A DNA stretch of 64,000 bases from an uncultured bacterium (GTDB lineage Bacteria > Omnitrophota > Omnitrophia > Omnitrophales > Aquincolibacteriaceae), in assembly GCA_964482725.1 (NCBI GenBank), contig CAYZYT010000012.1, positions 1,310-65,309 on the forward strand. The letters are read 5' to 3'. Below the pieces are notes generated by a model that was not told the DNA's origin, made no database searches, and saw only the letters and a list, made by a program, of their open reading frames with translations. Below are positions 2,084-36,740 of the stretch, in pieces. Within the stretch, counting starts at the first letter, position 1, and every line of letters starts with the position of its first letter. The position numbers and the translations under genes are program-made.

Positions 2084-2139
2084 ATAGAAAAAGGGCCCAT
2101 CTTTTACGACGGGCCTCGTTGTTTTTTCCTTAATAAAAA

Positions 2140-2336
2140 TGGAGCGGGATACGGGAATCGGCGCCTTACATTCGCTCCGCTCACTTCAGGTCGGCCACCC
2201 GCCCTACAGATATGACATTTGTCATATCTGACATCAGGGCTCCCTTCGATTCCCGAATCGAACACCGTAGACGGCTGACCTTGAGCCGCCACGGTGCCGC
2301 ATTATTTCAATCAGAAAAAAGCGGGATACGGGATTC
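2140..2336. repeat. tRNA-Gly 3'-end-derived direct repeats flanking a conserved structured element (copy A of a two-member family)
   Basis: tggagcgggatacgggaatcg at 2140-2160 is identical to the 3' end of tRNA-Gly at 8615-8635. A second partial copy, gcgggatacgggattc, lies at 2321-2336. Between them is the core cttcaggtcggccacccgccc + perfect hairpin gatatgacatttgtcatatc + gggctcc.ttcgattccc, shared with 36541-36666. Confidence 0.45.
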
Positions 2337-2489
2337 TACAATGACATTTCCATAACATCATCAATAACAATGCGTTGGAACGATCTCGAAGATTTCAGCA
2401 GCATTTGTCTATCGCATCAATTATTTACATCCAGAATTTTTAAAGCGAAAATTTCTACGCCCCTAAAAAAAATGAATATCGATAGTTTT

Positions 2490-5432
2490 TTAAAAATCGT
2501 AGCGAACAGTGCCGTAATAGGTGTTCGACATGAACTGATCTCGCAGTTCTAGGTCCCAGTTCCCTGTCAATGTGACGTTCCCTTTGTTTAAAAACCCGAG
2601 CTCCGCACCAAAGAGCATCCCGTTCTTCGCGGGTTTGGCGCCGATCGTATCAAAAGACGGGCCGCCGCCGGCAAAAGTCGCCGTCGTCTGGAAACGATCC
2701 CCGATATAATCATAGAGCCAGGCTGCCTTCGCTGAAGGAATGAATGTCCCGAGTTTCTTCGCCACCATCGGATACGCCAATTTCATGCCCAGGGACTGCT
2801 CCAATTGATGGTAGCCTTCCCCCTGCACAGAAAGGTTCAGGGCATTAGCACCCTTTTCCTTATACTTGTTCATATAAAGATAGTTATACCCCAAACCCGC
2901 AAAGGGCGTCACTTCCAGTTTCTTCGTCTCTTCGAAAGTGAAAGTGTAACCCGTTTCGAAGTTCGTTGAATACTGCTGCCCGTAATGATCCGCTTTCGCG
3001 ACGCGCTTATTCGTAGGAGTGAGCCAGATCTCACGGCGACTGTCATAATTATTTTGTGTGAAAGCGAACATCCCGTCCACATACCAGGAGTTCTCGACCT
3101 GGCTACGCACAGCCTCGTAGGATTTCTTGCCACCTTGACGCGCTTTGTTAAGATCGAGAGAATCGTAACTTCCGTAGATCGTCCCCTGGAAACTATTGAT
3201 ATCATCCGAAGGACTGCCCGGCTGTTTGGAATGCACGCCCGCCCAGCCGTAACTGCCGGCGAAGCCCGCGCGGAAATGTTTATCGATCACTTTATCCGCA
3301 CCGATCGTGGTCCCGAAGGTGTTCGCCGAAAATCCCTGGATTCCCTTGCGCTCGTCTTGTTTCATGTTGCTCCCGAGCCCTTGCATCCAGACGCCGACAC
3401 CGTTTAGCATTTCTCCGGCCGAAACACCTGTCCCCACAAACCCGCTCCGCGCGCCGCCCAACCGATTGGCGATCATCGTAATTCCCTGACTCGTCAGAGC
3501 GCGACTGCCCTCCGCCGTCCCGGAACTCACATCCGGAGTCATCGTATCAAGAGCGTTCCCGACATTTTTAGAGGATTCCCCGTCAAGCGTATTTAATACA
3601 TTGAGCATATCCCCTGTCGCGCCGGCCGCGCCTACAGCTTCAAGGACAGAGCCCGCGGCGGCTTCGTTTGAGTTTGCAGCAATGGTGTTGTAGGGGTTTG
3701 CGCGGGTAGCGGTAACCACAAAGTCGTTGCCGGAGGATGCGCCGGCAAAAGCAAGAACAGCGCTATTATCTGTGATAGTGACGCCCGTGTAAGTTCCGGC
3801 GGCGGCGGCGTCTATGATCGTGTAAGGGGTATTGTTGGGGACATAGTTAGAAATGGTAAGATCGAGTATCCCGCCGGTTATATTCGGCGCGGCGGTTGCA
3901 GTGATCGACCCGTTATTTACACCATCTATAGCGACTTTAAGGGTAGATGCGGCCAGTGACTGCGTATATATACCGACTACATTCAATGCGTAGGAACCGA
4001 TGTCGAGGGTTGCGTTATTCGTGACGGCCCCTGTGCCGAGAGCGTTCACGTTCCCGGCGGCAAGCGTGCCCGCGGTGATCGTATTAAGCCCTGTGTGGGT
4101 GTTGGCTCCGGTAAGGATGGTTTTTCCGGTACCGGTCTGGTTAACTCTTAAACTACCGGTAAGTTGAGGCGAGAATGTATATGATGCGTCGGTTTCTTTA
4201 AAATTGAGATTTGCTGTACCCGAGCCTCCGGCAATGATCGGGGTATTAATGGTCCCTGCTAAGCTATTGTTTCCTATGTTAAGCGTGCCTGAGGAGCCGA
4301 CTAATGAGGCCAATAAACACAAGCCATTCTCTGCATTCACTAAGCCGCCATTGGAAATGGTCAGTGTGCCGGTAGCCGCCGCATTTGGGCTTCCAATGTA
4401 CAAAGCTTTACCGGCAGCGTCGGCGGATGAAATGGTCCATGTGGAATTAGCACCATCCACGGTGACGGTGCCTGAGGAGGTTGCATCACGGCTCATTTTT
4501 GCGTAGGTAGTAGTCACTAAGCCACCATTGGTAATATTCAAGGTGGCGTTGCCAGAGAAGCCAACGGCAAGATTAGCAATATTCGTCCACGTGGAATTAG
4601 CACCATCCACAGTAACGGTACCTGTGGAGCCTGAAAATCGGCCTATGATTCCGGTAGCAGAATTACTTACTGCGCCTCCATTAGTAATATTCAGGACTCC
4701 GGTGCCGTAGTAGCCGGCACAAAAATTGCCAGCCGTAGTTACATATGAAGAATTAGCACCATCCACAGTCATAGTGCCTGTGGAGAGTGCATTTCCACCG
4801 ATATTTACTCCATTAAGGCTATTATTCACTACAGCGCCATTGGAAATATTCAGCGTGCCGATGCCGGAGACACCGACGGTCAGCTGATTGCTATTCGTCC
4901 ATGATGAGGTCCCGCCATCCACAGTCATAGTGCCGGTGGAGCCTGCACTAGAACCGATATTTGTGACGGTATTGCTCAGCGTTGCGCCGTTTTTTACATT
5001 CAGCGTTGCTGTACCCGTGTTTCCAACCGTTAATGTGCTTGAATCGGTCATACTAGCACCTGTGTTAAGCTCTAAAGTGCCTCCGCCGTTAAAGATAACG
5101 GCGGGGGTGGAATTCATGGTGCCGCCTTTAACCATAACTATGCCGGTAGCCCCTGATACGTCGAATGTGGGTGTACAGGTTATGGTATCCAGATTACTTA
5201 AAAGGGTGATCGGGTTATCTGCGCCGAATGTTCCGGAGAAAGAGATGGTCTGTGCGCCGCCTAATCCATTAGCATCAATGATAGCCTGGCGAAGAGACCC
5301 CGCGCCGCTGTCGTTATTGTTTGTTACCGTCGCCGCATGAACAGGCACGGCGCATACACATAATACCATCATGCCGATAGTCATTAATAAAGCCAACGCC
5401 GCAGGTACTGCCGATGTTATTCTTTTTTCCAT
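2490..5432 (-). CDS. Classical (type Va) autotransporter outer-membrane protein with repetitive beta-strand passenger
   Basis: 980 aa. Signal peptide MEKRITSAVPAALALLMTIGMMVLCVCAVPVHA. Many repeats of the G.GTLNI.NGG.V.N...TGTMTVDGANS.WT type (autotransporter-associated beta-strand repeats). The roughly 270-aa C-terminal beta-barrel ends ...GTVRYDF with an aromatic residue. Confidence 0.75.
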   Translation of the reverse strand: MEKRITSAVPAALALLMTIGMMVLCVCAVPVHAATVTNNNDSGAGSLRQAIIDANGLGGAQTISFSGTFGADNPITLLSNLDTITCTPTFDVSGATGIVMVKGGTMNSTPAVIFNGGGTLELNTGASMTDSSTLTVGNTGTATLNVKNGATLSNTVTNIGSSAGSTGTMTVDGGTSSWTNSNQLTVGVSGIGTLNISNGAVVNNSLNGVNIGGNALSTGTMTVDGANSSYVTTAGNFCAGYYGTGVLNITNGGAVSNSATGIIGRFSGSTGTVTVDGANSTWTNIANLAVGFSGNATLNITNGGLVTTTYAKMSRDATSSGTVTVDGANSTWTISSADAAGKALYIGSPNAAATGTLTISNGGLVNAENGLCLLASLVGSSGTLNIGNNSLAGTINTPIIAGGSGTANLNFKETDASYTFSPQLTGSLRVNQTGTGKTILTGANTHTGLNTITAGTLAAGNVNALGTGAVTNNATLDIGSYALNVVGIYTQSLAASTLKVAIDGVNNGSITATAAPNITGGILDLTISNYVPNNTPYTIIDAAAAGTYTGVTITDNSAVLAFAGASSGNDFVVTATRANPYNTIAANSNEAAAGSVLEAVGAAGATGDMLNVLNTLDGESSKNVGNALDTMTPDVSSGTAEGSRALTSQGITMIANRLGGARSGFVGTGVSAGEMLNGVGVWMQGLGSNMKQDERKGIQGFSANTFGTTIGADKVIDKHFRAGFAGSYGWAGVHSKQPGSPSDDINSFQGTIYGSYDSLDLNKARQGGKKSYEAVRSQVENSWYVDGMFAFTQNNYDSRREIWLTPTNKRVAKADHYGQQYSTNFETGYTFTFEETKKLEVTPFAGLGYNYLYMNKYKEKGANALNLSVQGEGYHQLEQSLGMKLAYPMVAKKLGTFIPSAKAAWLYDYIGDRFQTTATFAGGGPSFDTIGAKPAKNGMLFGAELGFLNKGNVTLTGNWDLELRDQFMSNTYYGTVRYDF

Positions 5433-5453
5433 GTCATCCTACTATTTATCCGG

Positions 5454-7850
5454 TTAGTTCGGGTCGGAGCTTAACTGATTCGTATGGTCTATGGTGCCCG
5501 GGGATTCAATAAACTGGGCGGGCAGCGGATTCGCGACGCCCCACCAGTTATACTGGGCTGTTACGGAATAAGCTGTTATATTTTTCACATCATATGCGGT
5601 ATTGCCGTATATGGAATTGTGTCCGGCCGACCCCTGAGTGCCTCCGCCGAAATCCGCGTTGCTAAGCGGTTGGTTATATCCAGCCCTGCCGATTATCACG
5701 CCATAAGCATTATCTTTGATAGTGTTGTTGTAGAAAGAACCGGTGAAGGTCGATGTTGACTGCGAGCCCAATTCGATGCCTTCGTATGTTTGGTCCGATA
5801 TCACGTTATCATAAACTGTCGCATTAACCGAGCTTGAACTTTGCAAATGGAAATTCACGCCATACACGTTACCCGTAAAAGTATTTCTCGCAAGAGTTAC
5901 TGTAATAGAGTTGGTTCCGTAAGGCTTAACAGCAATTCCGGTTTCCCCGTTGTCTGTAACGACATTGTCAGCCACCAGCACGCCATTCATAGACCCTGTG
6001 CTGCCTGGATTGAAAGCCAGCTGAAGACCCCGATTAAGGTTTTGATAAACGTTATTTCCGGAAATGGTAACGCTCAAAAAAGATGAAGCGTTATTACCTG
6101 TCAGCGCTATAGCAACAGAATCATTACCGCTCACTATATTGTTTTTCATCTCGCAAGTGTTAATAATGGAGCTGTTATATCCATACGTATATATTCCGGC
6201 CCAGGCGTTGCTTTGCACGGTATTTCCCGAGATCCTGACATCCCCTTGTGAATTTGTATAAAAATCGGCTCTTATTCCTCGGCCTGAGGTTGTGGGCGGG
6301 GCAACGGGCAAGGTATTATAAGCGGGCGCGCCCGTGTTCCTATTGTTTGAAGAGGTGTTGTTGTTAATGTGAAACATCGGGGTCGCCGTGCCCTGCGCGA
6401 CAGCGAAAATCCCGGCATAGCCGGAATTATCCGTAACGATATTGTTTGAGATGGTGTAAGTACCTGTAGTAGAGCCACCGATATCAAGAAGTATGCCTTC
6501 CTGGCTGTTGCCTGATACGGTATTGTGATCTATCGTCGTATTCCGTATGTTCTGGCCGTAGATGCCTCTTAAGCCGTTCTGCACTTTAAAGCCCATGATG
6601 GTGTTATTATTGGCAAGAGTAATACCGATACCAGCAACGCTAATGACTGGATTCCCCGGAGCTGATATGCCGGCAAAGCCTCCGTTGTATCCCGACCCCC
6701 ACAGCGTAACGCTATCGGTGAGTATTATATTTTCGGCATAATTGCCGCTTCCTTTATTCACATAGACCCACTTATCTCCTGTGGCGTTAGTAACGCCGTC
6801 AGCTATCGTGATATACGGATGCTCGAGTGAACCGTCGGAGATCCCCACGTAGGAGTTATCGACAAAGGTCATATCGTGCACTTTGGTCTTCAGCGTGGGC
6901 GCGGCGGCCGTCCTTGAAGTAACATCAATATCCCTTATGACCCTATCCACCATACGTTCCCTCAAGGGCCTGAGACCTTTCTGATAACCGAAAAATTTTC
7001 CAAATTCACCGAAAAGCGCGCTCATCTTGAATACATTGACCGTTTCAAGAGGAATGGTCATAAAAGCTCCCACAAAACAGTCCGTCCCGTTGTAACCATC
7101 GTGTTTGATCTCGACTTCAAAAGTGAGCGCGCGGATCGGCCGGATCTCGATCCGCCCTTTGATGCCGTTCATGCTCTTGTTGCAGTCCGGAAAGTAGCTG
7201 TAGCCCCCGAGAAATGCCCGGGTTTCCACATATTCCGAAATGAGCGGCAGAAGCACGCCGCCCTCATAATCGAATCCCATGAGCGCCTCTTCATAGGTCG
7301 GTGTCGTCATCTTCACGAGGCTTGTGGACCCGAACACGTAGGTGGTCTCTTCCGAGATGAGCTTTTTATCGGTAAGGGGAAAATAAAAATTGGTCCTCAT
7401 GTCGAACCATTTGGAAAGACCCTCCATGCCAAACCCGAACTGGTGATTCCGGACGTCATTCTCAGTGTGCTTAGTATCATAGAAAAAGTTGCCCCCGGCG
7501 AGGAACGATTCATCAAACAAAAGCGCACGCGCTCCCACGCCGACATTCTGCTCATTGGAGTTATGGGGTCCAATCACGGTCTTCGAATCCGCGAACAACA
7601 TGCTGTTACGGGTGCCCGCCACGGGAATCAGGTTATCGAAGTAAGTCTGAAGTTTTCCGGATCCGCCCCTAACGCCCGGCATGACCTGGGCGGGCCACTC
7701 TTTCGGAGCATCAAGGAACCAAAGTTCTTTTGTTTCGGTAGAGCGTTCCACAAGAGGAGCCTGCTGGGCTTGAGCGGCCGAAAAGCCAGTAGTGGGAACC
7801 ATAAAAATCAAAGGAAGAATTGCGATTAAGAAAAAAAGCTTCCCCCTCAT
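5454..7850 (-). CDS. Outer-membrane/secreted protein with N-terminal beta-barrel-like region and C-terminal right-handed parallel beta-helix (PbH1/pectate-lyase-like) repeats; possible inverse (type Ve) autotransporter
   Basis: The ORF runs to 7952, but the likely start is the internal Met of the signal peptide MRGKLFFLIAILPLIFMVPTTGFSAAQA. The N-terminal ~330 aa have alternating beta-strand character. The C-terminal repeats (NNIVTDNSGYAGIFA, GNTVQSNAWAGIYTYG) are typical of beta-helix proteins. There is no C-terminal barrel. Confidence 0.5.
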   Translation of the reverse strand: MRGKLFFLIAILPLIFMVPTTGFSAAQAQQAPLVERSTETKELWFLDAPKEWPAQVMPGVRGGSGKLQTYFDNLIPVAGTRNSMLFADSKTVIGPHNSNEQNVGVGARALLFDESFLAGGNFFYDTKHTENDVRNHQFGFGMEGLSKWFDMRTNFYFPLTDKKLISEETTYVFGSTSLVKMTTPTYEEALMGFDYEGGVLLPLISEYVETRAFLGGYSYFPDCNKSMNGIKGRIEIRPIRALTFEVEIKHDGYNGTDCFVGAFMTIPLETVNVFKMSALFGEFGKFFGYQKGLRPLRERMVDRVIRDIDVTSRTAAAPTLKTKVHDMTFVDNSYVGISDGSLEHPYITIADGVTNATGDKWVYVNKGSGNYAENIILTDSVTLWGSGYNGGFAGISAPGNPVISVAGIGITLANNNTIMGFKVQNGLRGIYGQNIRNTTIDHNTVSGNSQEGILLDIGGSTTGTYTISNNIVTDNSGYAGIFAVAQGTATPMFHINNNTSSNNRNTGAPAYNTLPVAPPTTSGRGIRADFYTNSQGDVRISGNTVQSNAWAGIYTYGYNSSIINTCEMKNNIVSGNDSVAIALTGNNASSFLSVTISGNNVYQNLNRGLQLAFNPGSTGSMNGVLVADNVVTDNGETGIAVKPYGTNSITVTLARNTFTGNVYGVNFHLQSSSSVNATVYDNVISDQTYEGIELGSQSTSTFTGSFYNNTIKDNAYGVIIGRAGYNQPLSNADFGGGTQGSAGHNSIYGNTAYDVKNITAYSVTAQYNWWGVANPLPAQFIESPGTIDHTNQLSSDPN

Positions 7851-8131
7851 CACTGCGAAGGTAAGGCTTTTTTTTACAAGAGAGGGAGCATGCGGCACAC
7901 CTTTGACATTTTTCATAATCGGCCTTAAAGTGGACGGCATTGCGCAGATCAATTTCTTGAAGAATAAAAGCTAGAACCAGCCACAGTAGTTTCTCTTTCT
8001 TTTTCTGCTACTCTTTTTCTTTCTCTTTGTGGATTCTGTGAATTTGTGGATGGGGCAAGGCAATCTCATCTAAATTCTGCGCAGAGTTTTCTCCGTGCAT
8101 TTAAGGCTCCACCGTGCCTTGACCGTCTTGC

Positions 8132-8497
8132 TTAAATTCCTACTTTTTCGGTTTTTTCATGTTTCAGCAGACTCAAAACGATACGACGTAGATGCGTAAA
8201 ATTTTGAGCTACGTGTCCCTCTGTGGCGGACACAGCACTCGTCCTCTCGGAAAGCAATATCCAAAGTCCGGTGAAAGCCATTCTCAACACCCCAACCCCA
8301 CGCACGACTTTGGCGAACTCCCTCGCCAAGAAACTTATATCATCGGTGCGACTTTTTGTATAGAAAAACTCTATCGTGCTGGCAATCTTTCCGCAAATTA
8401 CGCCATTCGGATTTTGTTCAACATACATGTCCTGCAACATATAAACGAAAAACAGCAGCATTTCAGCAGCATCACGGTTTAAAAAATGAACTTTCAC
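8132..8497 (-). CDS. Hypothetical 121-aa protein in an AT-rich island next to tRNA-Gly; possibly a degraded transposase/integrase fragment
   Basis: ORF in a locally AT-rich stretch (7975-8615) that differs in composition from its flanks. It shows weak resemblance to transposase C-terminal motifs (..IEFFYTKSR..) only, with no confident homology. Confidence 0.25.
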   Translation of the reverse strand: MKVHFLNRDAAEMLLFFVYMLQDMYVEQNPNGVICGKIASTIEFFYTKSRTDDISFLAREFAKVVRGVGVLRMAFTGLWILLSERTSAVSATEGHVAQNFTHLRRIVLSLLKHEKTEKVGI

Positions 8498-8614
8498 AAC
8501 TTGGAATGACTTGGGATAGCTTGGAGTGGCTTGGAATACAACATAAGATAATAAAAAGGGTTACGCCGCTTTTGACGTAACCCGTTGACTGGCTTGGGAC
8601 TTCAGAAAAAGAGA

Positions 8615-8688
8615 TGGAGCGGGATACGGGAATCGAACCCGTCTCAACAGCTTGGGAAGCTGCCACATTACCACTATGCTAATCCCGC
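8615..8688 (-). tRNA. tRNA-Gly (anticodon CCC), CCA encoded
   Basis: The reverse complement folds as a cloverleaf: acceptor GCGGGAT/ATCCCGC, D-stem GCAT/ATGT, anticodon stem GCAGC/GCTGT with loop TTCCCAA, T-arm ACGGG-TTCGATT-CCCGT, discriminator T, then CCA. Confidence 0.85.
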
Positions 8689-8777
8689 ATTTCAAACTTC
8701 TACAAACTTACGCCTTCGACACCAGCGCTCATGCGCTGGTGCTGCAAACAGAACGAAACCTGAAGTTTCGTTCTGCC

Positions 8778-8830
8778 GACCCGTCTCAACAGCTTGGGAA
8801 GCTGCCACATTACCACTATGCTAATCCCGC
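8778..8830 (-). pseudogene. Partial duplicate of tRNA-Gly (5' two-thirds only: acceptor 5' strand, D-arm, anticodon arm)
   Basis: gacccgtctcaacagcttgggaagctgccacattaccactatgctaatcccgc is identical to the corresponding part of the tRNA at 8636-8688. The T-arm and 3' acceptor are replaced by unrelated sequence. A third copy of ctaatcccgc lies at 8903-8912. Confidence 0.55.
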
Positions 8831-8966
8831 TTGTCATCTATTAAAAATCTATCGGTAAACGGGATAGTCCCGCCAACCGTTATTATTTATTAGGGCGGGG
8901 CTAATCCCGCAAAAATACTTTAGGGGGACAGTCCCCCTAGATCTTAAAGGGACTGTCCCCTTGAAG

Positions 8967-17725: not shown

Positions 17726-20700
17726 TTACGCCGACACGGAGGTGGCTTTCTGGGTCAGCATATCCGACCACAGCTTGGTCAGGCCTTCCAGCAAGATTTC
17801 ATTAATGTCGTAGAGACCATCCCCCTTCTTTTCAAGGACATTATCCCCTACTTGCTGACGCAACAGAGCATTGGTTTGATCCACACCATTCTGCGCCACG
17901 TTTCCGGCCAAGAGGCTTCGGATCGCAGCATTTCGTTTCTGGGCCTGTTTCTGAGCCCGGAGAACGGTTCCCACAAATTGCCCCGAAAGATCCAGCCCTT
18001 CTTCAATAAGGATCGTCAAATTAGCCCGGGTAATGGCAGCATTCCCGCGCATGAGAGCTGCCGCGGCACTATTGGCGAGCGCCGATTTCGAAGACCTCAT
18101 TTTAAACTCGATCTGGACGCGCGGACCGATCTTTGCCCCCTTATGATCAAACGAATTTTGGACATTTTGAATCGCGCCCTTGAGAACCGCTTGTGCCGCC
18201 GCGTCTTGGAAAAGCGCGTCATTGGCAATGACAAAACGCTCGACCAGTTGGGTCTTCGTGCCAAGCCGCAAGCTCATATTCTTAAAATCTTCGTCGCTCG
18301 GCGCATCCGCCTTGACCGTCACCATGCCCCCGGACTTGTCAGAAACGGCCATGATGGGATTCTCCAGAATATTTTTTGCAAGACTAAGAAATTTTTGCCA
18401 GTTGAGATCACCCGCCTTCAGCGCTACAAGCGTCGTCAACATCGCCGCCACATCTTCAGCGTTAAGCATTTCGAGTTGAACCGGCACAATGATCTGCCCC
18501 AAAACATCCGCCAGAGAATCCACGCCACGTTGAAAATGCGTACTGATCAACTTCCGTCGAACCTCCGGGGTCTTACCGAGAAGAACCCAAACCTCTTCGG
18601 CCAACACTCGGCGCTGTTGCTCCACAACCGGCCGTCCTTCTGGTTTATAAATATCCACAACACCGGGGGTGAAACGACCTTCCGAGCGCGGCAACAAAGC
18701 GAGAATCTGCGGGATAATCCGGACTTCCAGGGTCGCGTAACCTGAAGCGTCCAAAGCGACATCGGATCTCTGGACCTTATAGGCATTACTTTGCAAGGCC
18801 TTGGCCACAGTATCTAGGTAATTTTTTATCGACTCCAAAGCTTGGCTTCGATCCACACCATCATTCCGGCGGAGCGCAAAGCGAACAAGAATCCCCGGGC
18901 GATTTCCTTTAGAAGGTGTGATCGATTCCAGGTCCAGCCGGCCCGCGTTAGCGATCCTCGACTCCAAATCGAAAATACCATAGACCGGCGTCAAAGGATA
19001 AGCGGCCCGCCTTTCTGTCAGAGCATTGACGACCGCGGCATCCAATTTAAACTCCTTGGCCAAGTCCCTCACCTCGGCGCGAGGCGCGGTGCTGATCTGC
19101 GGATTAAACGAATCCAGTGCCGCCTTAATCCCCTCAACGGTCGGAGAGAACGATTTGCCTCTGGCCGAGAGAGTTCTTACGTTCCGGGGATACCGGTACA
19201 CGACACCGTCCTCTGCAACAAAATCATATTGGCCTGCGGCGGGGAATTTCCGGTAGTGCGTCTTCATGGGGCCATTTAAAAACTTTTGGAGATCAAGCGC
19301 CGCATTCTGCGGATCCCTCGGATCCACACTTAAAACCAGCGCTTCTCTCTGTTTGATGACCTGTTTAACGATAATCCGTGTATTCTTTTCGGAACCCTCT
19401 TGAGTTACGCGGAACTCCCCTTTCCGCGTCTCGGAGCGAGCGGCTTCAATCCAGCGAGCAGCCTCGACAACAAATGCGGACTGAGCGTTCCAGTTTTGAC
19501 CTATCGGCACCTCGGCATTCCAGCGCACCACAGCGTCCAAAACACCTTTCAAATCATTCATTTGCCCAAAATAAAGGCTGAGCGCTCTTGCATACAAACT
19601 CGGATCTTTTTCAATCGCCTGCAAAAACTCAGGAGCTAGCAGTTCCTGACCAAGCTGCTGCGCGATCAAATCGCGCCGTTCAGGCTTCTCATGGCTAAGC
19701 AATAACTCCCGAAAAGACTGCTCGATCTCCTGGGTAATCGCCCCACGATTCGGGATGTTGCCACTCTTTGAATACCGCAGGGCTAATGAAGCTAGCTTGC
19801 TATCGGCCATCCGGCCCAACCCCCGGTTGAGCGGCGTCGCGTTATCATAAATGGAATTTTCGATTTTTCTGACAGCTTGCTCGACCGTCGCAAAGATATT
19901 CTCCCCTGGAGCGCGCGGGGCTTTCAGCATCTCAACGGCTTTTATCGCAGACTTTGCCATGACGACCCGGTCAAAGACTTTGAACTTAATGGGATGCTGC
20001 CCTTGAAGCGTCTGCACCACAAGCACCGGTCCGACCCAACTATCCGGCGCATCAGAAACCTGAATAGCAGATGTGATTTTCTCACCGTCTTTCGCAGCTA
20101 ACAATTGGACCGCATCTACCGTGCCCCGGCGAAAACCGAATAATGACTGTTCTAGCCCGGCAGGATTCATCGCAACGGCATCCACCACTTCCATCCTCCC
20201 CTCGGAGCGAGCGGTTAATTCAAACACGACCTGGATATCCCCCAACAAAATATTTTTTTCTGATTCCTGGGCATTGGTCCATCCGTCCACTCCCCGACTC
20301 AAAACCCTGACCTTCGCGGTCCCGTTCATATTTTCAGAGGAAATATCGCTTTCAAGAACAATGTAGACCTTGCCATGGTCGGGATGATCGGAACGATTGT
20401 GGAAAACGACCTGACCGGGATTGATACGCCACCCGGCCTGGGGCTGCACATTCACAAACCCGCGGGACTGCAACTCCGGGACCAAGTTTTGTTCCACCGT
20501 ATTTCCTGCCAGCGTGGACAAAAGGGCTTCCTTGATCCGAGCCAATCGCGCAGCATCCAACCTCGTCTCGGAGCGAGAGACAAACACTTGCCGGCCTCCG
20601 CCTCCATCTGTGACCTTGGCTTTTCCGGTCGCTATCAAGCGATACATGTCGACCACCGACATTATTTGATTCTTGTCAAAAAGTGAAACTGTTGTAGTCC

Positions 20701-23700
20701 CTGCTATTTCCTGGCTCTGTAAATACTGCAGCGCCGGGACTGCGACTGGATCATTTACCGAATAATCAACAACATTAGCGCCATTGCGCCGATCCGGTTT
20801 TGCAGATATCAGGCCCGCACGAATGCCTTCCTTAGCAATCTCGACCGACAAGCCCACATTCTCCGTTTCACTGATCTCAACACTCACCGCTGTATCAGGA
20901 GAATTCTTTGACCTAAGCTTCTTTTGAGCCAGATCAGTTCGCACAAAATCCGGGATATCCATGTCCGCGGGCAGGAAAAAATAAAATCCATCATTACCTA
21001 TCTGGCGGTAGCCAATCGTAGGATTGCGATCACGAAGGTCCGTATCCAGGGCGCTGGCTTTTAATCTCTGAGGTTGCGTCTTCGGCTTCTCAGAAATGGC
21101 GAGGAGAGAATAATCGCTACCATTGGGTATGCCAAAAACATCATAAAATTTCGGAGCAGCGTATTCTCGTCCAAGTGCTGACTCCGTGGTGATATCTCCC
21201 CCTCTCGCCTTTTGAGCCGCCTTGATAAGCTCTTCTTTGGGACCCGTCAACCTCACCTCGGAGCGGCCAAGCTCAGCCTGGATCTGGGCGCGGCGTTCAT
21301 TCACATTCGTGAGCACATCCTGAGGCGCTGCCGGATTGTCGACCAACCACCGGTCGATCTCGGCAAGAGACGCCGCCAATTGAGCATTTGCCAAAACAGG
21401 AGCGAGTGCGCCATTTGCTGCTCGGCCCGCCTTCTCAAAACTCATATCCCGGTCGTCTGTCAGTTTAAGCCCGGGGCGACCGAGCACGTCTCTTAGCCAG
21501 GCATTCTGCTTAACCAAAGCCTTGATCTCCTTAACCAAAGCCATGATCTGTAACTTCAAGTAGCCCAGGTGCAAAAGACTTCCCACTCTCGTATCACCAA
21601 GGCGCGCGATCTGTGCGTTCCTCTGCGCGGCCGGCACGAACACCAACCAATGAAAGATGGAGGAAACTGCCGTGAATGCGAAAAGGCCGATGGAAAAAGA
21701 CAGGAGCTTTTGATATCCGACAAAGCTCATTCCGAACGAGCCTTGCCCGACACCGCCAACATACGGAAGAACCTGATCCGTTGTCATTGTTCCCGTCCAG
21801 GCAAATGCAACAAGCCCTGCGGAAATCCCCGTCGCCCATAACAGCCCTTCCATGATCTTCTCGCTCACCGCCCTCGCCTCGGCGCGAGGGATAGAACCGG
21901 ATATGACGGCATATAATCCGCCTGTTTGATCGGCGGTATTGAATGCACGCTCTCGGTCAACGCCTCCCTTTTTGGAGCTGGCTATGATTTCGTCAGCTCT
22001 TGGAAGCCTCCTCACCAGATCCAAAACCATGCCGCGGTCGGCTTCAGAGAGCATAAAATTGGCCGCGAGGGCGTCCTGAAAAACGTCACCTTCATAAACC
22101 GGCAGTTTTGAAGCGACATAGCCAACGTCTTTGAATGGCGCCCGCAGCAACTCTTCTGTCTGACGGAACAATTCTGCAAGATATCCGGCGTACTGAGCGA
22201 CAAAGACCGGATCATTCCATTTTTCCTCCGGAAGCATCCGGAGAAGCTGTTCGGTGGGTTCCTGCAACATCGGCATGCGATCAAACCACGCTGGCAGCCC
22301 CGCAGCCCCCTGTCCCCTCGCCTCGGAGCGGGGAACAAAGACATCATTCGGAGTCCATTTTTTGGGCCCAACCCAGGCATCAAATAATTTCTGAAGGTCA
22401 CTAACCTCTTTTCTGGGCGCAGGTTGGGTTGCTTCGATCCGATCAGCTAATGACCTGAGTCCCGCTATAATTTTGGTGCGTTCACCCTCCGCGACGGCAG
22501 CCGTTTGGATCTTTTTAAGTACCGTCCCCAGGTCCTGAAGACCGGTAACCAGCTGAAATCTTGTTTTATCGACTTCCCCTGACTTCGTCAGGAGCCCAGC
22601 TTTAGCTAGTAAGAGCACCCCACCAAGCATCTCTGCTTTAGTTGCCGAAGCCCCGCCGAAATTCATGATAGAAGCCGAAACCGCTCCTTGCCTGAGCGCC
22701 ATGCCACGCAAAACCTCTACCAACTCAGGCGCAGTGAAAGACAAATCGGCGAATTTCTGATCTCCCCGCGAGTGGACTTCTTCAGCTTGATTCTCCAACA
22801 TAAAGCTATACAGTCCGATCGCGACGGCTCCCCCCCTCGACTCGGCGCGGGCGGGCGTTGCGGTTAATCCGGGGAACTGCCCAATCGACAAAAGGTATTG
22901 GTTAAACGCCAGCATTACGCTAATAGCCTTTTCTGATCCAGCCGGCGCCGGACGCAACTCGGCATTTTGCCCAAACATAGGACTTACAGCTGTCGCTAAT
23001 TTCAATAGTTCAGCCTGGATATCCACTTCGTCTGTGTTCAGGCCTTTAACATACTCAATAGCGGCGAGCCACATCGGACGCTGGGACGGAATTCGCATCC
23101 CCGATTCACGCCGTTCTCCGGGTTGATCCGCCAGCCTCTGGAAGTGCGCTACAAGATCTGCGGCTTTAACCCTTACCTCGGAGCGGGCTGGAGATGCGGT
23201 GGATCCTGGAAATTGGCCGATCGAAAAAAGGTATTGGTTAAACGCCAGCATTACGCTAATAGCCTTTTCTGATCCAGCCGGCGCCGGACGCAACTCGGCA
23301 TTTTGCCCAAACATAGGACTTACAGCTGTCGCTAATTTCAATAGTTCAGCCTGGATATCCACTTCGTCTGTGTTCAGGCCTTTAACATACTCAATAGCGG
23401 CGAGCCACATCGGACGCTGGGACGGAATTCGCATCCCCGATTCACGCCGTTCTCCGGGTTGATCCGCCAGCCTCTGGAAGTGCGCTACAAGATCTGCGGC
23501 TTTAACCCTTATCTCGGCGCGGGCCACGGAAACTTCTGGCTTCCCAACATTGAGCAAGATCGTCTTAATGGGCGAAAAGGGGTCCGGCAGACGCGTCCCT
23601 GCGGAAGTTCTCGCGAAATCATAGGCAGGCAACCGCGTGTTCAGGGACTGTAGCACTTCAACCAACTTCTCATCCGGCATACTAGACATTTCTTTTAAGA

Positions 23701-26700
23701 GCGTACCCGCCGCGGATCTTACCCTTTCATCAAGTTCCAGTTGATTAGAAACACCCTCCAACGCCATCCGAATGATTTCTCGATCCCTCTCGGTCAATCT
23801 CACTTCGGCGCGGGCCACGGAAACTTCTGGCTTCCCAACATTGAGCAAGATCGTCTTAATGGGCGAAAAGGGGTCCGGCAGACGCGTCCCTGCGGAAGTT
23901 CTCGCGAAATCATAGGCAGGCAACCGCGTGTTCAGGGACTGTAGCACTTCAACCAACTTCTCATCCGGCATACTAGACATTTCTTTTAAGAGCGTACCCG
24001 CCGCGGATCTTACCCTTTCATCAAGTTCCAGTTGATTAGAAACACCCTCCAACGCCATCCGAATGATTTCTCGATCCCTCTCGGTCAATCTCACTTCGGC
24101 GCGGGCTTGTATAAATTGTTTTTCCGTGGCGCGGGCCCGTATAAATTCCTCTTCCGTGATTTCCCAGCCAGCCGGGATCTCTCTCGAATTAAAATCGACT
24201 GTCTTATTCGTGGCATTAAAAGGGATGCGCGCATATTGTCTCTCCCACACACCGTCAGCCCCAAGAACCTGATGCATCACAAAAATAGCGTCCTTTGAAA
24301 CAAAGCGCTCAAGAAGATTGGTAACATCCACGAATCCTTGATCTTTAAAGTGGACCGTAAAAACAGGGTTCGTCACCGTAGGCTCAACGATCTCGATATT
24401 GGCCGGCACCCCAGTCGCCGCAAGCGCCCCTGTAGCTTCCGGTACGGCGCTCGGAGCAACTTTAAGGCCCACGTCCATCACATCATTGGTTGTATACGCG
24501 TCGCGAAGATTCATCGCAAAGAATCCAGCCGCAGCAGCGTTTGTCAGCGGAAAAGATCTGTACCCGAAGTAGTTCGTACCGGGTTCAAACACGCCCTCGA
24601 TACCGGTCCCTTCGTTGTTCCAGCCAGTAAGCAAATTGGTACTGGAAATATAATCCGCAACCGCGTAAACCGGATTTGTTCCCGGGACCACGATGATAGG
24701 GGTCAAAACCATTTGCGCAGGCATGTTCGTCGTCGCCGGGACGAATTCCGGCTGGATCGAAATCTCCACTAAATTGGCGGAGAACGCCACACTCCCCATG
24801 ATCGAAAAGGCTACCGCCGTTGTCGCCAACTTCCCGGCCTTCGCCTTGCCTGGCTTGCGAATGGGTCTGATTAAATCTCCCGCATAGGGAAGAACCGCAG
24901 GGACAGAAGCCGGCGACATGGAGTATTTCCCGAACTGTGGCGCGGGCTCTTTCGGACGGAGATCACGCTCATTTTCCAAAATGGGTGCCAGAGCTTTCTG
25001 TGCCGCAATACCCGTAGTACCAAAGATCGTCCCGGATTCGACAAGAACGCCGCCCGGCAAAGCCATCTTTTCCGAGACCGTCGCAGCAACGGTCCCGTTG
25101 ATGGTCACGGATTGGGCCTCCGGCGAACTCGAACGGACCTTATAACTATCCTTGACGGGCTTTCCTTGAGCGTCCACTTCTTGAATGAGGGTGATGCCTT
25201 TTTTAACGGCGAGTTCCGACTGATTAAAAATCTCAACAACACCTGCAATGTTCTTATCCCCAACCCTGCTCATCGCTCCAAGAATCACAGCATATACTTC
25301 TTCGGGCCGGATACCCTGGGCTGCCAGAACGCCATCGCTCATAAGCTTTGACGCCATTTCAAGGTACGAGATCGAAAAAAGGTGCTCCCGATCCTGGAGC
25401 ATGGCGACACGGTATAAATTCTCATCGGACTTTTCGGAAAGACGCGGGGTGACGATGCCGTAGCTAATGGCGTTCTCCCTGAAAAGATCGCTCATGCCGT
25501 CGGTGTGGAAACCGCCGGTGATCAGAATGGCTTTGGTGATCTTCTTCTCTGCCATCTGGGACTGCATCTCTTTATAGAAGACGGCTTCACGCTTGTGAGC
25601 AAAATCATAGAACTCGAGGCCGGCAGTGAAAAGCTCATCCATCTTGGCGGCGAACTTAGGGGGCATCACATCACTAACAGACTGGCGACTAGAGACTGGA
25701 GACTGGAGGCTGGAAACCTTTTGACTTTGGTCTCTGGTCTCTGGTCTCTGGTCTGTGGTCCGTACGGCGCTTACCAGCCGTGCAGCAAGACTCGGAATCG
25801 CAACCTGGTCTTTATTCGAAAGCAGCTGCTGCCACTGTGTGCGATTGAGCTCAAGATGAAGAAGTTTACGCAAAAGCTCACCATCCCTATAAAGGGCGAG
25901 GAGTGCCTTCTGCTGAGGCTCCTGCGCTAAGGTATCGAGCATCTGCGTAAAAAGATATTCGATCTCCTCAAAAAGGACCTTGGGGTCCAGTTCCGATCGG
26001 AGAGTCACATAACCAGCAAAAAGACTGAACGCGGGATAATCGCTGAATTTAAAACCTTTGGGGCCGGCTTCCTGGGCCAGGCGTTCCAGCACTTCGCGCG
26101 GCGAAACTTCCGTAGCCGACTTCCCTACGGCAATACTTCCTTCATTGAAATTTTCAAGTGTCGCGAGAAGTTCTTTGGAAACTCCCTGGGTGCGAAGCAC
26201 CTTGATAAGCTTGGCCTGCTCTTCCTGCCCCTTCGTTTTATTCATATCTTTTTCCAGCTGCTGGATGACGAGAAGGCGTGAGATCTGCGGCCAGCCAACC
26301 TGAGCAAAAAGACTTTCAAGGTCAACGTTCAGGATCTTCTTGGATTTCACGGTAAGACTTTTGACGAAGGGCATGAAATCGCGGCGGCCCTGCTCGAAAC
26401 GCTTCCAGTCGGCGATCAGTTCCCGGGTCTCGGGTGAAAATGTTTGAGAAGCAACCTTGTCGAGTTTTCCGTCGAATCCTTTAAAGAAGTGCGACACATC
26501 GGCTTCAGCACCGAACACTTTTTTCAGAGCGTCATAGTTGGCCTTATATAAGGAAGCTTCTTCAATACCAAGAGCCTCGATATTCTTGTCAGCCTCCATC
26601 ATGTAGAGTTCGGCGCCGGTAAGCTCACCCTGCTTGGCAAGCTCATCACACAGCTTGAGATTGCGTTCCTGGTCCGGGAAGAGACGCAGGTAATCCGCGT

Positions 26701-27028
26701 CCAGTTTCTCAGAGGCTCCTTCGACGAAGATGGTCTTGAAACCATACTTCTTATTCATATGACCCAAAAGCTGCTTGATCTTCATCTGGGCCTGGTAATT
26801 GGCATGGGCATTCTGGATATGAAGAATGAATTGCGTATTAGCTCCGGCGGGCGCTTCATAGAGCGCATCCACAGTACCGAGTTCCGGAGGAATATCAATG
26901 CTCAGATAGGAAGGAAGCTCGCGCTGGCCGGCCATTTCGATTCCGGCGCCTGGGGCGGCTGAGACGCATTGCGTCGTCAGAAAGCAAAATAAGGTGCCCG
27001 TCGCAACCACCTTAAGCATGTTTTTCAC
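17726..27028 (-). CDS. Giant (3100 aa) secreted, membrane-spanning modular protein with a TraB/GumN/Tiki-like N-terminal domain and about 14 modules delimited by a recurring [AP]R[AS]E[VI]R motif
   Basis: Uninterrupted 9.3-kb ORF. Signal peptide MKNMLKVVATGTLFCFLTTQCVSA. The N-terminal domain carries FILHIQNAH...TIFVEGA and the GumN-like C-terminal motif ILITGGFHTDGMSDLFRENAISYGIV. A central hydrophobic block (GLLWATGISAGLVAFAW...FVPAAQ) predicts TM helices. Two in-frame tandem repeats are present, of 112 aa and 97 aa. Confidence 0.85.
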   Translation of the reverse strand: MKNMLKVVATGTLFCFLTTQCVSAAPGAGIEMAGQRELPSYLSIDIPPELGTVDALYEAPAGANTQFILHIQNAHANYQAQMKIKQLLGHMNKKYGFKTIFVEGASEKLDADYLRLFPDQERNLKLCDELAKQGELTGAELYMMEADKNIEALGIEEASLYKANYDALKKVFGAEADVSHFFKGFDGKLDKVASQTFSPETRELIADWKRFEQGRRDFMPFVKSLTVKSKKILNVDLESLFAQVGWPQISRLLVIQQLEKDMNKTKGQEEQAKLIKVLRTQGVSKELLATLENFNEGSIAVGKSATEVSPREVLERLAQEAGPKGFKFSDYPAFSLFAGYVTLRSELDPKVLFEEIEYLFTQMLDTLAQEPQQKALLALYRDGELLRKLLHLELNRTQWQQLLSNKDQVAIPSLAARLVSAVRTTDQRPETRDQSQKVSSLQSPVSSRQSVSDVMPPKFAAKMDELFTAGLEFYDFAHKREAVFYKEMQSQMAEKKITKAILITGGFHTDGMSDLFRENAISYGIVTPRLSEKSDENLYRVAMLQDREHLFSISYLEMASKLMSDGVLAAQGIRPEEVYAVILGAMSRVGDKNIAGVVEIFNQSELAVKKGITLIQEVDAQGKPVKDSYKVRSSSPEAQSVTINGTVAATVSEKMALPGGVLVESGTIFGTTGIAAQKALAPILENERDLRPKEPAPQFGKYSMSPASVPAVLPYAGDLIRPIRKPGKAKAGKLATTAVAFSIMGSVAFSANLVEISIQPEFVPATTNMPAQMVLTPIIVVPGTNPVYAVADYISSTNLLTGWNNEGTGIEGVFEPGTNYFGYRSFPLTNAAAAGFFAMNLRDAYTTNDVMDVGLKVAPSAVPEATGALAATGVPANIEIVEPTVTNPVFTVHFKDQGFVDVTNLLERFVSKDAIFVMHQVLGADGVWERQYARIPFNATNKTVDFNSREIPAGWEITEEEFIRARATEKQFIQARAEVRLTERDREIIRMALEGVSNQLELDERVRSAAGTLLKEMSSMPDEKLVEVLQSLNTRLPAYDFARTSAGTRLPDPFSPIKTILLNVGKPEVSVARAEVRLTERDREIIRMALEGVSNQLELDERVRSAAGTLLKEMSSMPDEKLVEVLQSLNTRLPAYDFARTSAGTRLPDPFSPIKTILLNVGKPEVSVARAEIRVKAADLVAHFQRLADQPGERRESGMRIPSQRPMWLAAIEYVKGLNTDEVDIQAELLKLATAVSPMFGQNAELRPAPAGSEKAISVMLAFNQYLFSIGQFPGSTASPARSEVRVKAADLVAHFQRLADQPGERRESGMRIPSQRPMWLAAIEYVKGLNTDEVDIQAELLKLATAVSPMFGQNAELRPAPAGSEKAISVMLAFNQYLLSIGQFPGLTATPARAESRGGAVAIGLYSFMLENQAEEVHSRGDQKFADLSFTAPELVEVLRGMALRQGAVSASIMNFGGASATKAEMLGGVLLLAKAGLLTKSGEVDKTRFQLVTGLQDLGTVLKKIQTAAVAEGERTKIIAGLRSLADRIEATQPAPRKEVSDLQKLFDAWVGPKKWTPNDVFVPRSEARGQGAAGLPAWFDRMPMLQEPTEQLLRMLPEEKWNDPVFVAQYAGYLAELFRQTEELLRAPFKDVGYVASKLPVYEGDVFQDALAANFMLSEADRGMVLDLVRRLPRADEIIASSKKGGVDRERAFNTADQTGGLYAVISGSIPRAEARAVSEKIMEGLLWATGISAGLVAFAWTGTMTTDQVLPYVGGVGQGSFGMSFVGYQKLLSFSIGLFAFTAVSSIFHWLVFVPAAQRNAQIARLGDTRVGSLLHLGYLKLQIMALVKEIKALVKQNAWLRDVLGRPGLKLTDDRDMSFEKAGRAANGALAPVLANAQLAASLAEIDRWLVDNPAAPQDVLTNVNERRAQIQAELGRSEVRLTGPKEELIKAAQKARGGDITTESALGREYAAPKFYDVFGIPNGSDYSLLAISEKPKTQPQRLKASALDTDLRDRNPTIGYRQIGNDGFYFFLPADMDIPDFVRTDLAQKKLRSKNSPDTAVSVEISETENVGLSVEIAKEGIRAGLISAKPDRRNGANVVDYSVNDPVAVPALQYLQSQEIAGTTTVSLFDKNQIMSVVDMYRLIATGKAKVTDGGGGRQVFVSRSETRLDAARLARIKEALLSTLAGNTVEQNLVPELQSRGFVNVQPQAGWRINPGQVVFHNRSDHPDHGKVYIVLESDISSENMNGTAKVRVLSRGVDGWTNAQESEKNILLGDIQVVFELTARSEGRMEVVDAVAMNPAGLEQSLFGFRRGTVDAVQLLAAKDGEKITSAIQVSDAPDSWVGPVLVVQTLQGQHPIKFKVFDRVVMAKSAIKAVEMLKAPRAPGENIFATVEQAVRKIENSIYDNATPLNRGLGRMADSKLASLALRYSKSGNIPNRGAITQEIEQSFRELLLSHEKPERRDLIAQQLGQELLAPEFLQAIEKDPSLYARALSLYFGQMNDLKGVLDAVVRWNAEVPIGQNWNAQSAFVVEAARWIEAARSETRKGEFRVTQEGSEKNTRIIVKQVIKQREALVLSVDPRDPQNAALDLQKFLNGPMKTHYRKFPAAGQYDFVAEDGVVYRYPRNVRTLSARGKSFSPTVEGIKAALDSFNPQISTAPRAEVRDLAKEFKLDAAVVNALTERRAAYPLTPVYGIFDLESRIANAGRLDLESITPSKGNRPGILVRFALRRNDGVDRSQALESIKNYLDTVAKALQSNAYKVQRSDVALDASGYATLEVRIIPQILALLPRSEGRFTPGVVDIYKPEGRPVVEQQRRVLAEEVWVLLGKTPEVRRKLISTHFQRGVDSLADVLGQIIVPVQLEMLNAEDVAAMLTTLVALKAGDLNWQKFLSLAKNILENPIMAVSDKSGGMVTVKADAPSDEDFKNMSLRLGTKTQLVERFVIANDALFQDAAAQAVLKGAIQNVQNSFDHKGAKIGPRVQIEFKMRSSKSALANSAAAALMRGNAAITRANLTILIEEGLDLSGQFVGTVLRAQKQAQKRNAAIRSLLAGNVAQNGVDQTNALLRQQVGDNVLEKKGDGLYDINEILLEGLTKLWSDMLTQKATSVSA
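22890..23526 (-). repeat. Intragenic tandem duplication, 336-bp unit x2, near-identical at the DNA level
   Basis: About 300 bp at 22890-23190 are repeated at 23226-23526, with short divergent junctions. The unit encodes the 112-aa unit AEIRVKAADLVAHFQRLADQPGERRES...GQFPGSTASPAR. Confidence 0.85.
23509..24099 (-). repeat. Intragenic tandem duplication, 291-bp unit x2, near-identical at the DNA level
   Basis: Anchor cggaaacttctggcttcccaac occurs at 23527 and 23818 (period 291 bp). The unit encodes AEVRLTERDREIIRMALEGVSNQLELDE...NVGKPEVSVAR (97 aa). The plus-strand small ORFs at 23459/23741 are duplicated artefacts of this repeat. Confidence 0.85.
25690..25752 (-). repeat. Heptanucleotide microsatellites inside the giant ORF: (AGACTGG)x3 and (GGTCTCT)x4
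   Basis: gagactggagactggaggctgg ... ggtctctggtctctggtctctggtctgtgg. The 7-nt unit is not a multiple of 3. The tracts encode the low-complexity stretch RPETRDQSQKVSSLQSPVSSRQS. Confidence 0.7.
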
Positions 27029-36522: not shown

Positions 36523-36666
36523 TGGGCGATGAGGGATTCGGCGCCTGCCGCTACGCTTCAGGTCGGCCACCCGCCCAACAAGCATGACATCAGGTCATAC
36601 TTGTCTGATGGGCTCCTTTCGAATCCCCTTTAGGCCAAATCACCTTTCAATAAAAGAAAATAGATT
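36523..36666. repeat. tRNA-Val 3'-end direct repeat plus conserved structured element (copy B), immediately 3' of tRNA-Val
   Basis: tgggcgatgagggattcg at 36523-36540 duplicates the tRNA-Val 3' end at 36667-36684. The intervening 126 bp carry the core cttcaggtcggccacccgccc + hairpin + gggctcctttcgaatcccc, homologous to 2162-2265. Confidence 0.45.
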
Positions 36667-36740
36667 TGGGCGATGAGGGATTCGAACCCCCGACCCTCTC
36701 CGTGTAAAGGAGATGCTCTAACCAACTGAGCTAATCGCCC
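36667..36740 (-). tRNA. tRNA-Val (anticodon TAC)
   Basis: Reverse complement GGGCGATTAGCTCAGTTGGTTAGAGCATCTCCTTTACACGGAGAGGGTCGGGGGTTCGAATCCCTCATCGCCCA. Acceptor GGGCGAT/ATCGCCC. No encoded CCA. Confidence 0.85.

Follow-up and report, generated by a model that had tools for sequence, protein, structure and literature searches.

Two tRNA loci with small inserts

The window, a stretch of 64,000 nucleotides from an uncultured bacterium of the Omnitrophota (contig CAYZYT010000012.1), contains genes for tRNA-Gly, tRNA-Asp and tRNA-Val, all on the minus strand. Two small inserts, copy A (2140-2336) and copy B (36523-36666), are also read on the minus strand, that is, in the tRNA sense, and their parts are collected in Table 1. 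The sequence claims made for both copies in the preliminary description all hold. Read in the tRNA sense, the shared layout consists of a tRNA 3' part (from C56 to the discriminator), a spacer, a segment complementary to the tRNA from T54 to about C65 (IR-L) and a core, followed by a second copy of the tRNA 3' end (D) and the ancestral flank. The core, of about 85 nt and without similarity to tRNA, carries two hairpins and has the order GAARGGA; P2, closed by GCCC/GGGC; GGGU; and P3, GGCCGACCU...AGGCGC. The tRNA 3'-end copy said to precede the core is indeed exact, but in the tRNA sense it follows the core.

Table 1. Features of the tRNA-Gly and tRNA-Val loci, with window positions
Feature	Position	Strand	Basis
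Copy A, native terminator of the tRNA-Gly locus, now behind D	2094..2115	-	L062 has an equivalent hairpin and T run after tRNA-Gly
Copy A, D, displaced ancestral tRNA-Gly 3' end (C56 to CCA)	2140..2160	-	21/21 identical to 8615-8635
Copy A, P3, conserved helix GGCCGACCU...AGGCGC, GCGGAGC tip	2161..2196	-	folding
Copy A, P2, variable hairpin, GCCC/GGGC closure	2201..2240	-	folding, compensatory changes
Copy A, IR-L cgggaatcgaa, 5' strand of P1	2245..2255	-	reverse-complements tRNA-Gly T54-G64
Copy A, lineage-specific spacer with own hairpin caccgtggcggc...gccgtctacggtg	2256..2320	-	sequence comparison
Copy A, U, remnant of the upstream tRNA-Gly 3' end, gaatcccgtatcccgc, without CCA	2321..2336	-	15/16 identical to 8619-8634
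6.3-kb island between tRNA-Gly and copy A	2337..8614	-	Pfam scan, relatives
Intact tRNA-Gly(ccc) with encoded CCA, original gene of copy A	8615..8688	-	tRNA call and synteny
tRNA-Asp	36254-36330	-	tRNA scan
Copy B, D, 18-nt tRNA-Val 3'-end copy (C56-A73)	36523..36540	-	18/18 identical to 36667-36684
Copy B, P3 GGCCGACCUGAAGCGUAGCGGCAGGCGC, GCGTAGC tip	36541..36568	-	folding
Copy B, P2 caagtatgac-ctgat-gtcatgcttg, GCCC/GGGC closure	36573..36613	-	folding
Copy B, IR-L aggggattcgaa	36618..36629	-	complements tRNA-Val T54-C63
Copy B, spacer	36630..36666	-	about 70% like the L065 orthologue spacer by eye; missing at the L063 empty site
Copy B, intact tRNA-Val(tac)	36667..36740	-	72.9 bits

The gene order PfkB - tRNA-Gly - Nudix is common to the comparison loci L058, L059 and L062, and at L062 the site is empty, tRNA-Gly being followed by about 70 nt of flank with the terminator and then by Nudix. 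D of copy A, which provides the 3' strand of P1 and an unpaired tail, is together with its flank orthologous to the tRNA end and flank of this empty site, and to D of L058. The spacer of copy A is 84-92% identical to those of the tRNA-Gly-type copies L018 and L020, and its first 19 nt or so resemble the native post-tRNA-Gly flank at L062. The second repeat of the tRNA-Gly end, on the other side of the insert, is confirmed with one mismatch; the upstream tRNA of copy A is merely this 16-nt remnant, and the intact gene lies 6.3 kb away. The island in between encodes an autotransporter (2490-5432) and an inverse-autotransporter/beta-helix protein (5454-7952), and no integrase was found in it by the Pfam scan. 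L054 and L060 share its right-end junction, '...attgta|gaatcccgtatcccgc', which in both abuts the Nudix flank. In L054, L056 and L060 the island alone occupies the tRNA-Gly - Nudix site; a beta-helix-protein island is in the same place in L056 and L057, and the island is missing at the L058 and L062 sites. At this place L058 and L059 have an insert of another type, with two hairpins, a target-complementary segment of its own and a D copy that includes CCA; this type has the same architecture and a perfect three-way junction fold (z = -6.9). The window holds a stack composed of tRNA-Gly with CCA, the 6.3-kb island, the shared island junction, copy A, D with CCA and the native terminator. These nested layers are the pattern left by successive integrations into one tRNA, and nested partial tRNAs of that origin are established for tRNA-targeting elements (10.1101/2020.12.28.424599; PMC9897764).

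Smaller repeats surround the same gene. The left end of the island, shortly after tRNA-Gly, contains four tandem 10-nt units (8500-8539; cttggaatga cttgggatag cttggagtgg cttggaatac). Directly upstream of the intact gene (8689-8830, minus strand), the tRNA-Gly 5' part is repeated as a 52-nt copy, after which comes a two-hairpin module, P2-UUUGCAG-P3; modules of this type are also placed in the T loop of a 5' pseudo-tRNA (L056, 4053-4280) and downstream of a tRNA with a D copy (L058, 9775-9916). An extra 12-nt fragment of the tRNA-Gly 5' end, gcgggattagcc, is located upstream of the 52-nt copy (8899-8910, minus strand).

At the tRNA-Val locus, the direct repeat of the tRNA end reported around copy B matches without exception. 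The flank of its D, gagttatgttc..., resembles the tRNA-Val flank at the L063 empty site. The interval between tRNA-Val and tRNA-Asp is empty in L063 and L064, whose LOG protein is 90% identical, and filled in L065-L067, where it is 80% identical. Behind D of copy B, some 70 nt (36436-36506) contain an inverted repeat, cctgat...atcagg; the stretch is common to L065 and absent at the L063 empty site, and may be a separate small insertion.

A family of inserts with a common fold

The word CTTCAGGTCGGCCACCCGCCC is present exactly twice in the window, where shuffled sequences give an expectation of 0 even at 3 mismatches. A covariance model built from 12 copies (R1), run over the whole window with filters off, retrieves copies A and B only, with 103 and 100 bits and a runner-up at 12 bits; its E-values are only rough. 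Scanning a genome collection with a 21-mer yielded 5 true loci, in Candidatus Omnitrophota MAGs and in MAGs labelled uncultured Planctomycetales, and 2 chance matches in coding DNA, and a metagenome scan with a 20-mer added about a dozen distinct copies. On the syntenic loci R1 produced three further matches, comprising the orthologue of copy B, identical in L065-L067, and a diverged copy in L065; the core word of the orthologue carries one mismatch. Exact-word scans hence undercount, since R1 recovers copies beyond the exact core word, and the set collected through that word leans to intact, young-looking members. By exact-word scans and R1 together, 16 distinct copies were obtained at 12 tRNA species on Omnitrophota-type contigs, with diverged variants in addition. 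The two loci of the window, proposed as members of one family to be sought genome-wide through its core, are thus no chance look-alikes.

The host tRNAs are Gly-ccc, Val-tac, Arg-acg, Pro-cgg, Leu-tag, Leu-gag, Leu-taa, Leu-cag, Asn-gtt, Gln-ttg, Ser-tga and Ser-gga. Every copy is downstream of a tRNA gene and always in its orientation, the inserts being of about 110-200 bp, devoid of ORFs and directly behind the tRNA. Measured from the T loop of the tRNA up to where D ends, the elements span about 130-200 bp. Among the variants, L029 and L037 bear the core after position 37 of a 5' tRNA-Pro copy, closed by the anticodon stem, with an intact tRNA-Pro downstream of that copy. In the high-GC variants L009, L011 and L038 the pairing segments match non-tRNA sequence. 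L003 is a 640-bp version with a small ORF and a core reduced to its 3' half, and L004 is a truncated stub.

The family is previously undescribed and known from Omnitrophota-type contigs. A literature search did not find a described equivalent. Rfam 15, whose families include tRNA, tmRNA, ribozymes, SRP and the IS605-orfB and HEARO motifs, gave at gathering threshold over the whole window the tRNAs as sole matches and none on the element; at E<=10 over 36450-37050, the element drew only chance miRNA-type matches, which cover its spacer/IR-L edge along with the tRNA. The element is, as first suspected, unlike any described RNA family in these scans. An all-against-all comparison of 359 ORFs around 18 copies revealed no recurrent protein that could be a partner, and Pfam scans of the 36 window ORFs detected no integrase, transposase or reverse transcriptase. 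One ORF (8132-8497) taken by eye for a transposase fragment has no Pfam match and was discarded as such. A viral origin was rejected, exact and gapped scans of IMG/VR returning only chance matches in high-GC coding DNA.

The single strand folds as a three-way junction in which P1, of 9-12 bp, is made by the pairing of IR-L with D (RNAalifold and single-sequence folds). In the alignment of 16 copies, which was fitted to the model and so leans to it, although a 12-copy MAFFT alignment agrees, 93% of the cells are paired and 16 of the 33 pairs changed on both sides. None of 500 shuffles matches the covariation observed in the 16 copies, and sliding the partners by 1-3 columns lowers the pairing to 32-50%. 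Pairing is therefore supported by covariation in 16 copies, beyond the two sequences in which it was first noticed. Covariation is seen in P1 and P2. At its base P3 hardly varies, apart from the diverged tRNA-Leu member of L065, which departs at two pairs, and this part therefore gives next to no evidence for or against pairing. Covariation of P1 is partly forced by the logic of the repeat, and P2 is the cleaner evidence; within the Gly lineage, CAG...CUG in copy A stands against CAA...UUG in L018 and L020, a compensatory change from G-C to A-U. The preliminary description had seen that the central hairpin differs in sequence between copies A and B while compensatory changes keep its pairing, and this is the case. 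It had also seen a long-range helix; its covariation with the identity of the tRNA is real (gggaatcg/cgattccc against gggattcg/cgaatccc), but its length is 9-12 bp and not 8.

The motif GCGNAGC occurs in 10 of the 16 copies on the tRNA-sense strand and in none on the opposite strand; it is positioned at the tip of P3 in nine copies and in the P2 loop in L019. GCGNAGC is the sequence of a very stable DNA mini-hairpin (PMC13037366). This bias is a hint, though not proof, that a DNA strand folds. Wobble pairs are uninformative on the strand (8 G-U against 6 A-C).

IR-L complements the T loop from T54 on, which is unpaired in the tRNA, and continues into the 3' strand of the stem. As read from the sequence, this is the layout of a toehold for strand invasion. 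A view of IR-L as the leftover of the natural 5' strand of the T stem was rejected for L007 and L022, which have an A opposite the U where the tRNA has G-U; copy B is ambiguous in this respect.

Filled and empty sites and the origin of the repeat

Empty sites are available at three orthologous loci, L062 (Gly), L063/L064 (Val) and L066 (Leu-cag), and the flank there matches the flank of D and not that of the upstream copy. D and its flank are then the ancestral tRNA end, and the copies are therefore insertions and not decayed duplicates. Comparison with relatives, proposed from the outset, in this way bears out the reading of the flanking tRNA-end repeats as marks of insertion. Older insertions have been pushed outward by later ones.

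In the case of tRNA-Leu(cag), L065 is filled and L066 empty, with an identical LOG protein in both. The two tRNA-Leu(cag) alleles (L065, 231-316; L066, 402-488) are clearly different, their stems differing throughout, which suggests that the tRNA region itself was exchanged. Since the whole allele differs, block replacement by homologous recombination could mimic an insertion at this pair of loci.

Of 13 intact copies, 11 have C56 as the first base of D, and the repeat measures 17-28 nt. D ends in CCA only where a gene encodes CCA, and at several loci it has CCA while U has none; moreover, the repeat continues past the tRNA end by 7 nt in L022 and by about 85 nt in L003. D thus derives from genes at the DNA level and not from mature tRNA. 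An origin from a primer-binding site or mature tRNA, as in retroelements, is ruled out by the absence of CCA from D at genes that do not encode it and by repeats that can overrun the tRNA end.

The identity of D with the tRNA end extends to positions where it is unpaired, with two exceptions, both conservative: a G replaces A57 in one, and in the other a T replaces C66 across from a G. In the orthologous B copies D follows the allele of its own tRNA, with C69 in the window and T69 in L065, although by eye no more than about 70% of the spacer sequence agrees and compensatory changes have occurred in P2. That D tracks the tRNA allele despite diverged spacers requires gene conversion, re-integration or function.

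Integration model and competing explanations

Taking into account that: (i) the inserts lie at a fixed place behind tRNA genes; (ii) a tRNA-matched segment pairs with D at the base of a covarying fold, and (iii) empty sites exist in relatives, we propose that the copies are non-autonomous mini-elements with the T loop as insertion site, that each supplies a tRNA 3' end of its own and that the folded junction acts in cis, an explanation with about an even chance of being correct. In the model, the mobile unit would be a small molecule with one tRNA 3' segment, which would integrate Campbell-style into a matching tRNA, the insertion point lying in the T loop between T55 and C56. Integration of this type would leave the tRNA intact and displace its old end, and in copy B the 3' part of tRNA-Val from C56 on would have been supplied by the element. 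The folded junction would be a cis-acting site, with both junctions at the base of one structure, in which IR-L would recognise the T loop and the 3' T stem through base pairing; this could enable one core to serve 12 tRNA species. The recombinase would be supplied in trans, and the active strand could be DNA or RNA. Three options were offered when the loci were first described, and a miniature tRNA-targeting element fits best. A plain att-site relic of a larger island fits poorly with the same core and architecture behind 12 tRNA species, and a tRNA-derived ncRNA is not supported for the core, which is without similarity to tRNA, just the two flanking pairing segments being tRNA-derived. Against the mini-element reading, neither a recombinase nor an excised circle nor a tandem copy has been seen, and no integrase system is known to combine a single conserved arm with core sites in 12 different tRNAs. 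The identity of the 20-mer core and of D could also reflect host-level selection on an RNA.

That RNA would be a structured part of the tRNA transcript: a sequence intervening in the T loop that is removed or bypassed in the RNA, a small ribozyme, or an RNA with a processing or regulatory task in tRNA operons. Here, the T loop would be the toehold by which IR-L invades the T arm, and the 5' half of the tRNA would then pair with D. At 9 of 9 loci the predicted lowest-energy fold does pair acceptor nucleotides 1-7 with D, and in the same folds IR-L pairs with the tRNA's own T loop and stem; the joint fold is computed to be 3-12 kcal/mol better than the tRNA and the element folded separately. D is under tRNA-like constraint: its identity includes the unpaired acceptor strand, and the changes tolerated are the A57-to-G, the C66-to-T that still pairs with G and the acceptor-allele co-change in L065. 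The copies are often placed between co-oriented tRNA genes, copy A being ahead of the native terminator, and the conserved unpaired junction bases, with strand lengths of 7, 3-4 and 0-1, are reminiscent of small ribozymes. However, Rfam, ribozymes included, has no match at E up to 10; the balance of G-U and A-C pairs gives no strand signal; and splicing is not needed as the upstream tRNA is already complete. Copies A and L018 are intact although no tRNA 5' half is nearby, and inspection of the P2 loops revealed no preference for GNRA or UNCG. The fold prediction is purely thermodynamic, whereas during transcription the tRNA would fold first. A role as RNA is a serious rival on account of the identity of D, the toehold layout of IR-L and the nine joint folds, but we judge it unlikely.

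Related to both views, and rather unlikely, is the idea that the core is itself a nucleic-acid machine, which might serve base-pair-guided programmable insertion or constitute a new type of tRNA intervening sequence or small ribozyme. In its first version, IR-L would invade the T arm via the loop, which would retarget one family to any tRNA; in the second, the element would be looped out of the T loop and carry its own spare 3' exon.

The inserts could also be scars of larger islands left after deletion of the cargo, the spacer being an attL arm and the core an attR arm, both now inactive. Integrated islands are indeed present at these tRNAs, where partial tRNAs remain from them, and the 640-bp version with its ORF and 3' half core (L003) and the truncated stub (L004) are what such decay might leave. 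Nevertheless, deletions arising independently would not produce the same ends, with the three-way junction unbroken, at 12 tRNA species, and the compensatory changes of P2 and the tRNA-matched IR-L show selection on single-strand pairing. Furthermore, the right end of the island in the window has no such core, and neither IMG/VR nor the 39 loci of the genome and metagenome scans contained a full-length core-bearing parent, so that this origin seems quite unlikely.

Very unlikely is a derivative of IS200/IS605, of the PATE type, moving by 'peel and paste' and targeting the universal GTTC of the T loop on the lagging-strand template, with the adjacent tRNA 3' end captured through cleavage upstream of the left end. 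It would account for the junction fixed at T55|C56 in the T-loop copies, for the strictly fixed orientation relative to the tRNA and for small, gene-less, hairpin-rich elements. The flank of the upstream copy resembles the native flank of another lineage, as capture predicts, and the DNA mini-hairpin motif (PMC13037366) restricted to the tRNA-sense strand, at the P3 tip in 9 of 16 copies, agrees with it. On the other hand, the IS200/IS605 family makes no target duplication and has similar hairpins at both ends, whereas here a duplication is present and the end hairpins are dissimilar; neither tnpA nor tnpB was seen among neighbour ORFs or in Pfam scans of the window, and the anticodon-loop and non-tRNA variants have no target tetranucleotide in common. 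Finally, decayed tandem tRNA duplicates with chance similarity and no conserved structure, for which the plentiful partial tRNA copies around these genes might speak, are refuted by the core without tRNA similarity, the 20-mer and covarying helices conserved in 16 copies, the abrupt ends of the copies in place of scattered decay, and the empty sites at three loci.

tRNA genes are classic landing sites of kilobase-sized islands that carry integrases. Williams, in 2002, is said to have named the T loop and the anticodon loop as the preferred sublocations of insertion. Tyrosine-integrase elements targeting tRNA genes are represented by Reiter 1989 and Williams 2002, as entries listed in PMC9897764, and by tycheposon arrays (10.1101/2020.12.28.424599). 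The copies share with such islands the insertion in the T loop, with variants in the anticodon loop, a restored tRNA 3' end with the old end left as a direct repeat, the nesting of successive insertions and the polymorphism of sites among relatives; the tRNA 3' part is repeated on both sides of the insert, one end of which has the intact tRNA, and the displaced fragment is on the ancestral flank. They differ in being of 110-200 bp or so with no integrase of their own or any other gene, in using one near-invariant core for at least 12 tRNA species, and in having an internal segment complementary to the target and a three-way-junction pairing under selection.

Like MITEs, PATEs, REPINs and cis-mobilisable elements, the copies are small and structured, occur many times without coding for anything, and presumably depend on mobilisation in trans. 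Unlike these, they have no element-borne terminal inverted repeats, the inverted segment being target-derived and varying with the tRNA; their direct repeat is defined by the tRNA and ends at its 3' end, with a variable length of 17-28 nt and of about 100 nt in L003, and their targets are strictly tRNA loops. With integron attC and CTX-phage attP(+) sites they have in common a function that would rest on intrastrand pairing and not on sequence, covarying helices and a stem that recreates a duplex version of the target. However, the R and L box consensus is missing (no RYYYAAC/GTTRRRY boxes, R''/R' and L''/L'), as is an integron or Xer/dif context, the neighbours being tRNA and housekeeping genes; the core is highly conserved, and the junction is at the inner and not the outer end of the closing helix.

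As in tRNA intervening sequences, for which bacterial group I introns of anticodon loops and archaeal introns at non-canonical positions are the classes for comparison, the lowest-energy fold is predicted to be a compact insert in the T loop of a tRNA-like body, and variants are located after anticodon-loop position 37. In contrast to a group I intron, with a P1-P9 core of at least about 200 nt, the core is far too small at 85 nt or so, no Rfam intron match was obtained and the upstream tRNA is complete; in contrast to tRNA introns generally, the duplication is at the DNA level and provides an internal spare 3' exon, which makes splicing unnecessary. The arrangement recalls TnpB omega RNA and IS110 bridge RNA in its conserved scaffold followed by 17-21 nt that match the target and in the target-complementary segment inside the element. 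It departs from guide RNAs in that there is neither an associated nuclease or recombinase gene (no tnpB or iscB nearby) nor an Rfam match, and in that the would-be guide is half sequestered, its first 8-13 nt being paired in P1. A bridge-RNA-like reading was dropped after inspection of copy B by eye showed nothing complementary to the left target flank. Retron, integron attC and hammerhead motifs were likewise rejected as not fitting in order or consensus; in the last case, the junction strands are GAARGGA and GGGU and not CUGANGA/GAAA, and Rfam gives no hammerhead match.

In practice, the partial tRNA copies made by these elements break assemblies and confuse tRNA annotation. Here the insertion geometry of tRNA islands recurs in a unit of about 150 bp that holds no gene; a folded three-way junction forms its conserved part, and the part that reads the target varies with the tRNA. 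If mobile, the units would be the smallest tRNA-targeting elements described and would point to a trans-acting enzyme that recognises structure together with base pairing, which would make them interesting with regard to programmable insertion. Should they function as RNA, they would be an uncatalogued class of structured RNA tied to tRNA maturation in a poorly studied phylum.

Further rearranged tRNA sequence and one long ORF are present in the window. Upstream of tRNA-Val (36745-36990, minus strand) there is a mosaic pseudo-tRNA-Val, opening with tRNA nucleotides 1-12, in which an 80-nt stem-closed multi-hairpin insert replaces the D loop (36886-36965), followed by the anticodon arm up to T55, a palindromic element of about 70 nt and gaatcc. 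The latter element belongs to a second repeat family, an imperfect palindrome of about 70 nt that is inserted in a 5' tRNA copy behind the TT of its T loop; its instances at 36798-36863 and in L002 (5974-6038) are 95% identical and in opposite orientations relative to the tRNA. Two public short-read assemblies of the same locus (L051, L052) end about 260 nt past the LOG gene, inside the pseudo-tRNA-Val region, probably because of the repeated tRNA pieces. Giant proteins have been reported for the phylum Omnitrophota, and a single ORF of 3100 aa extends over 17726-27028 on the minus strand.
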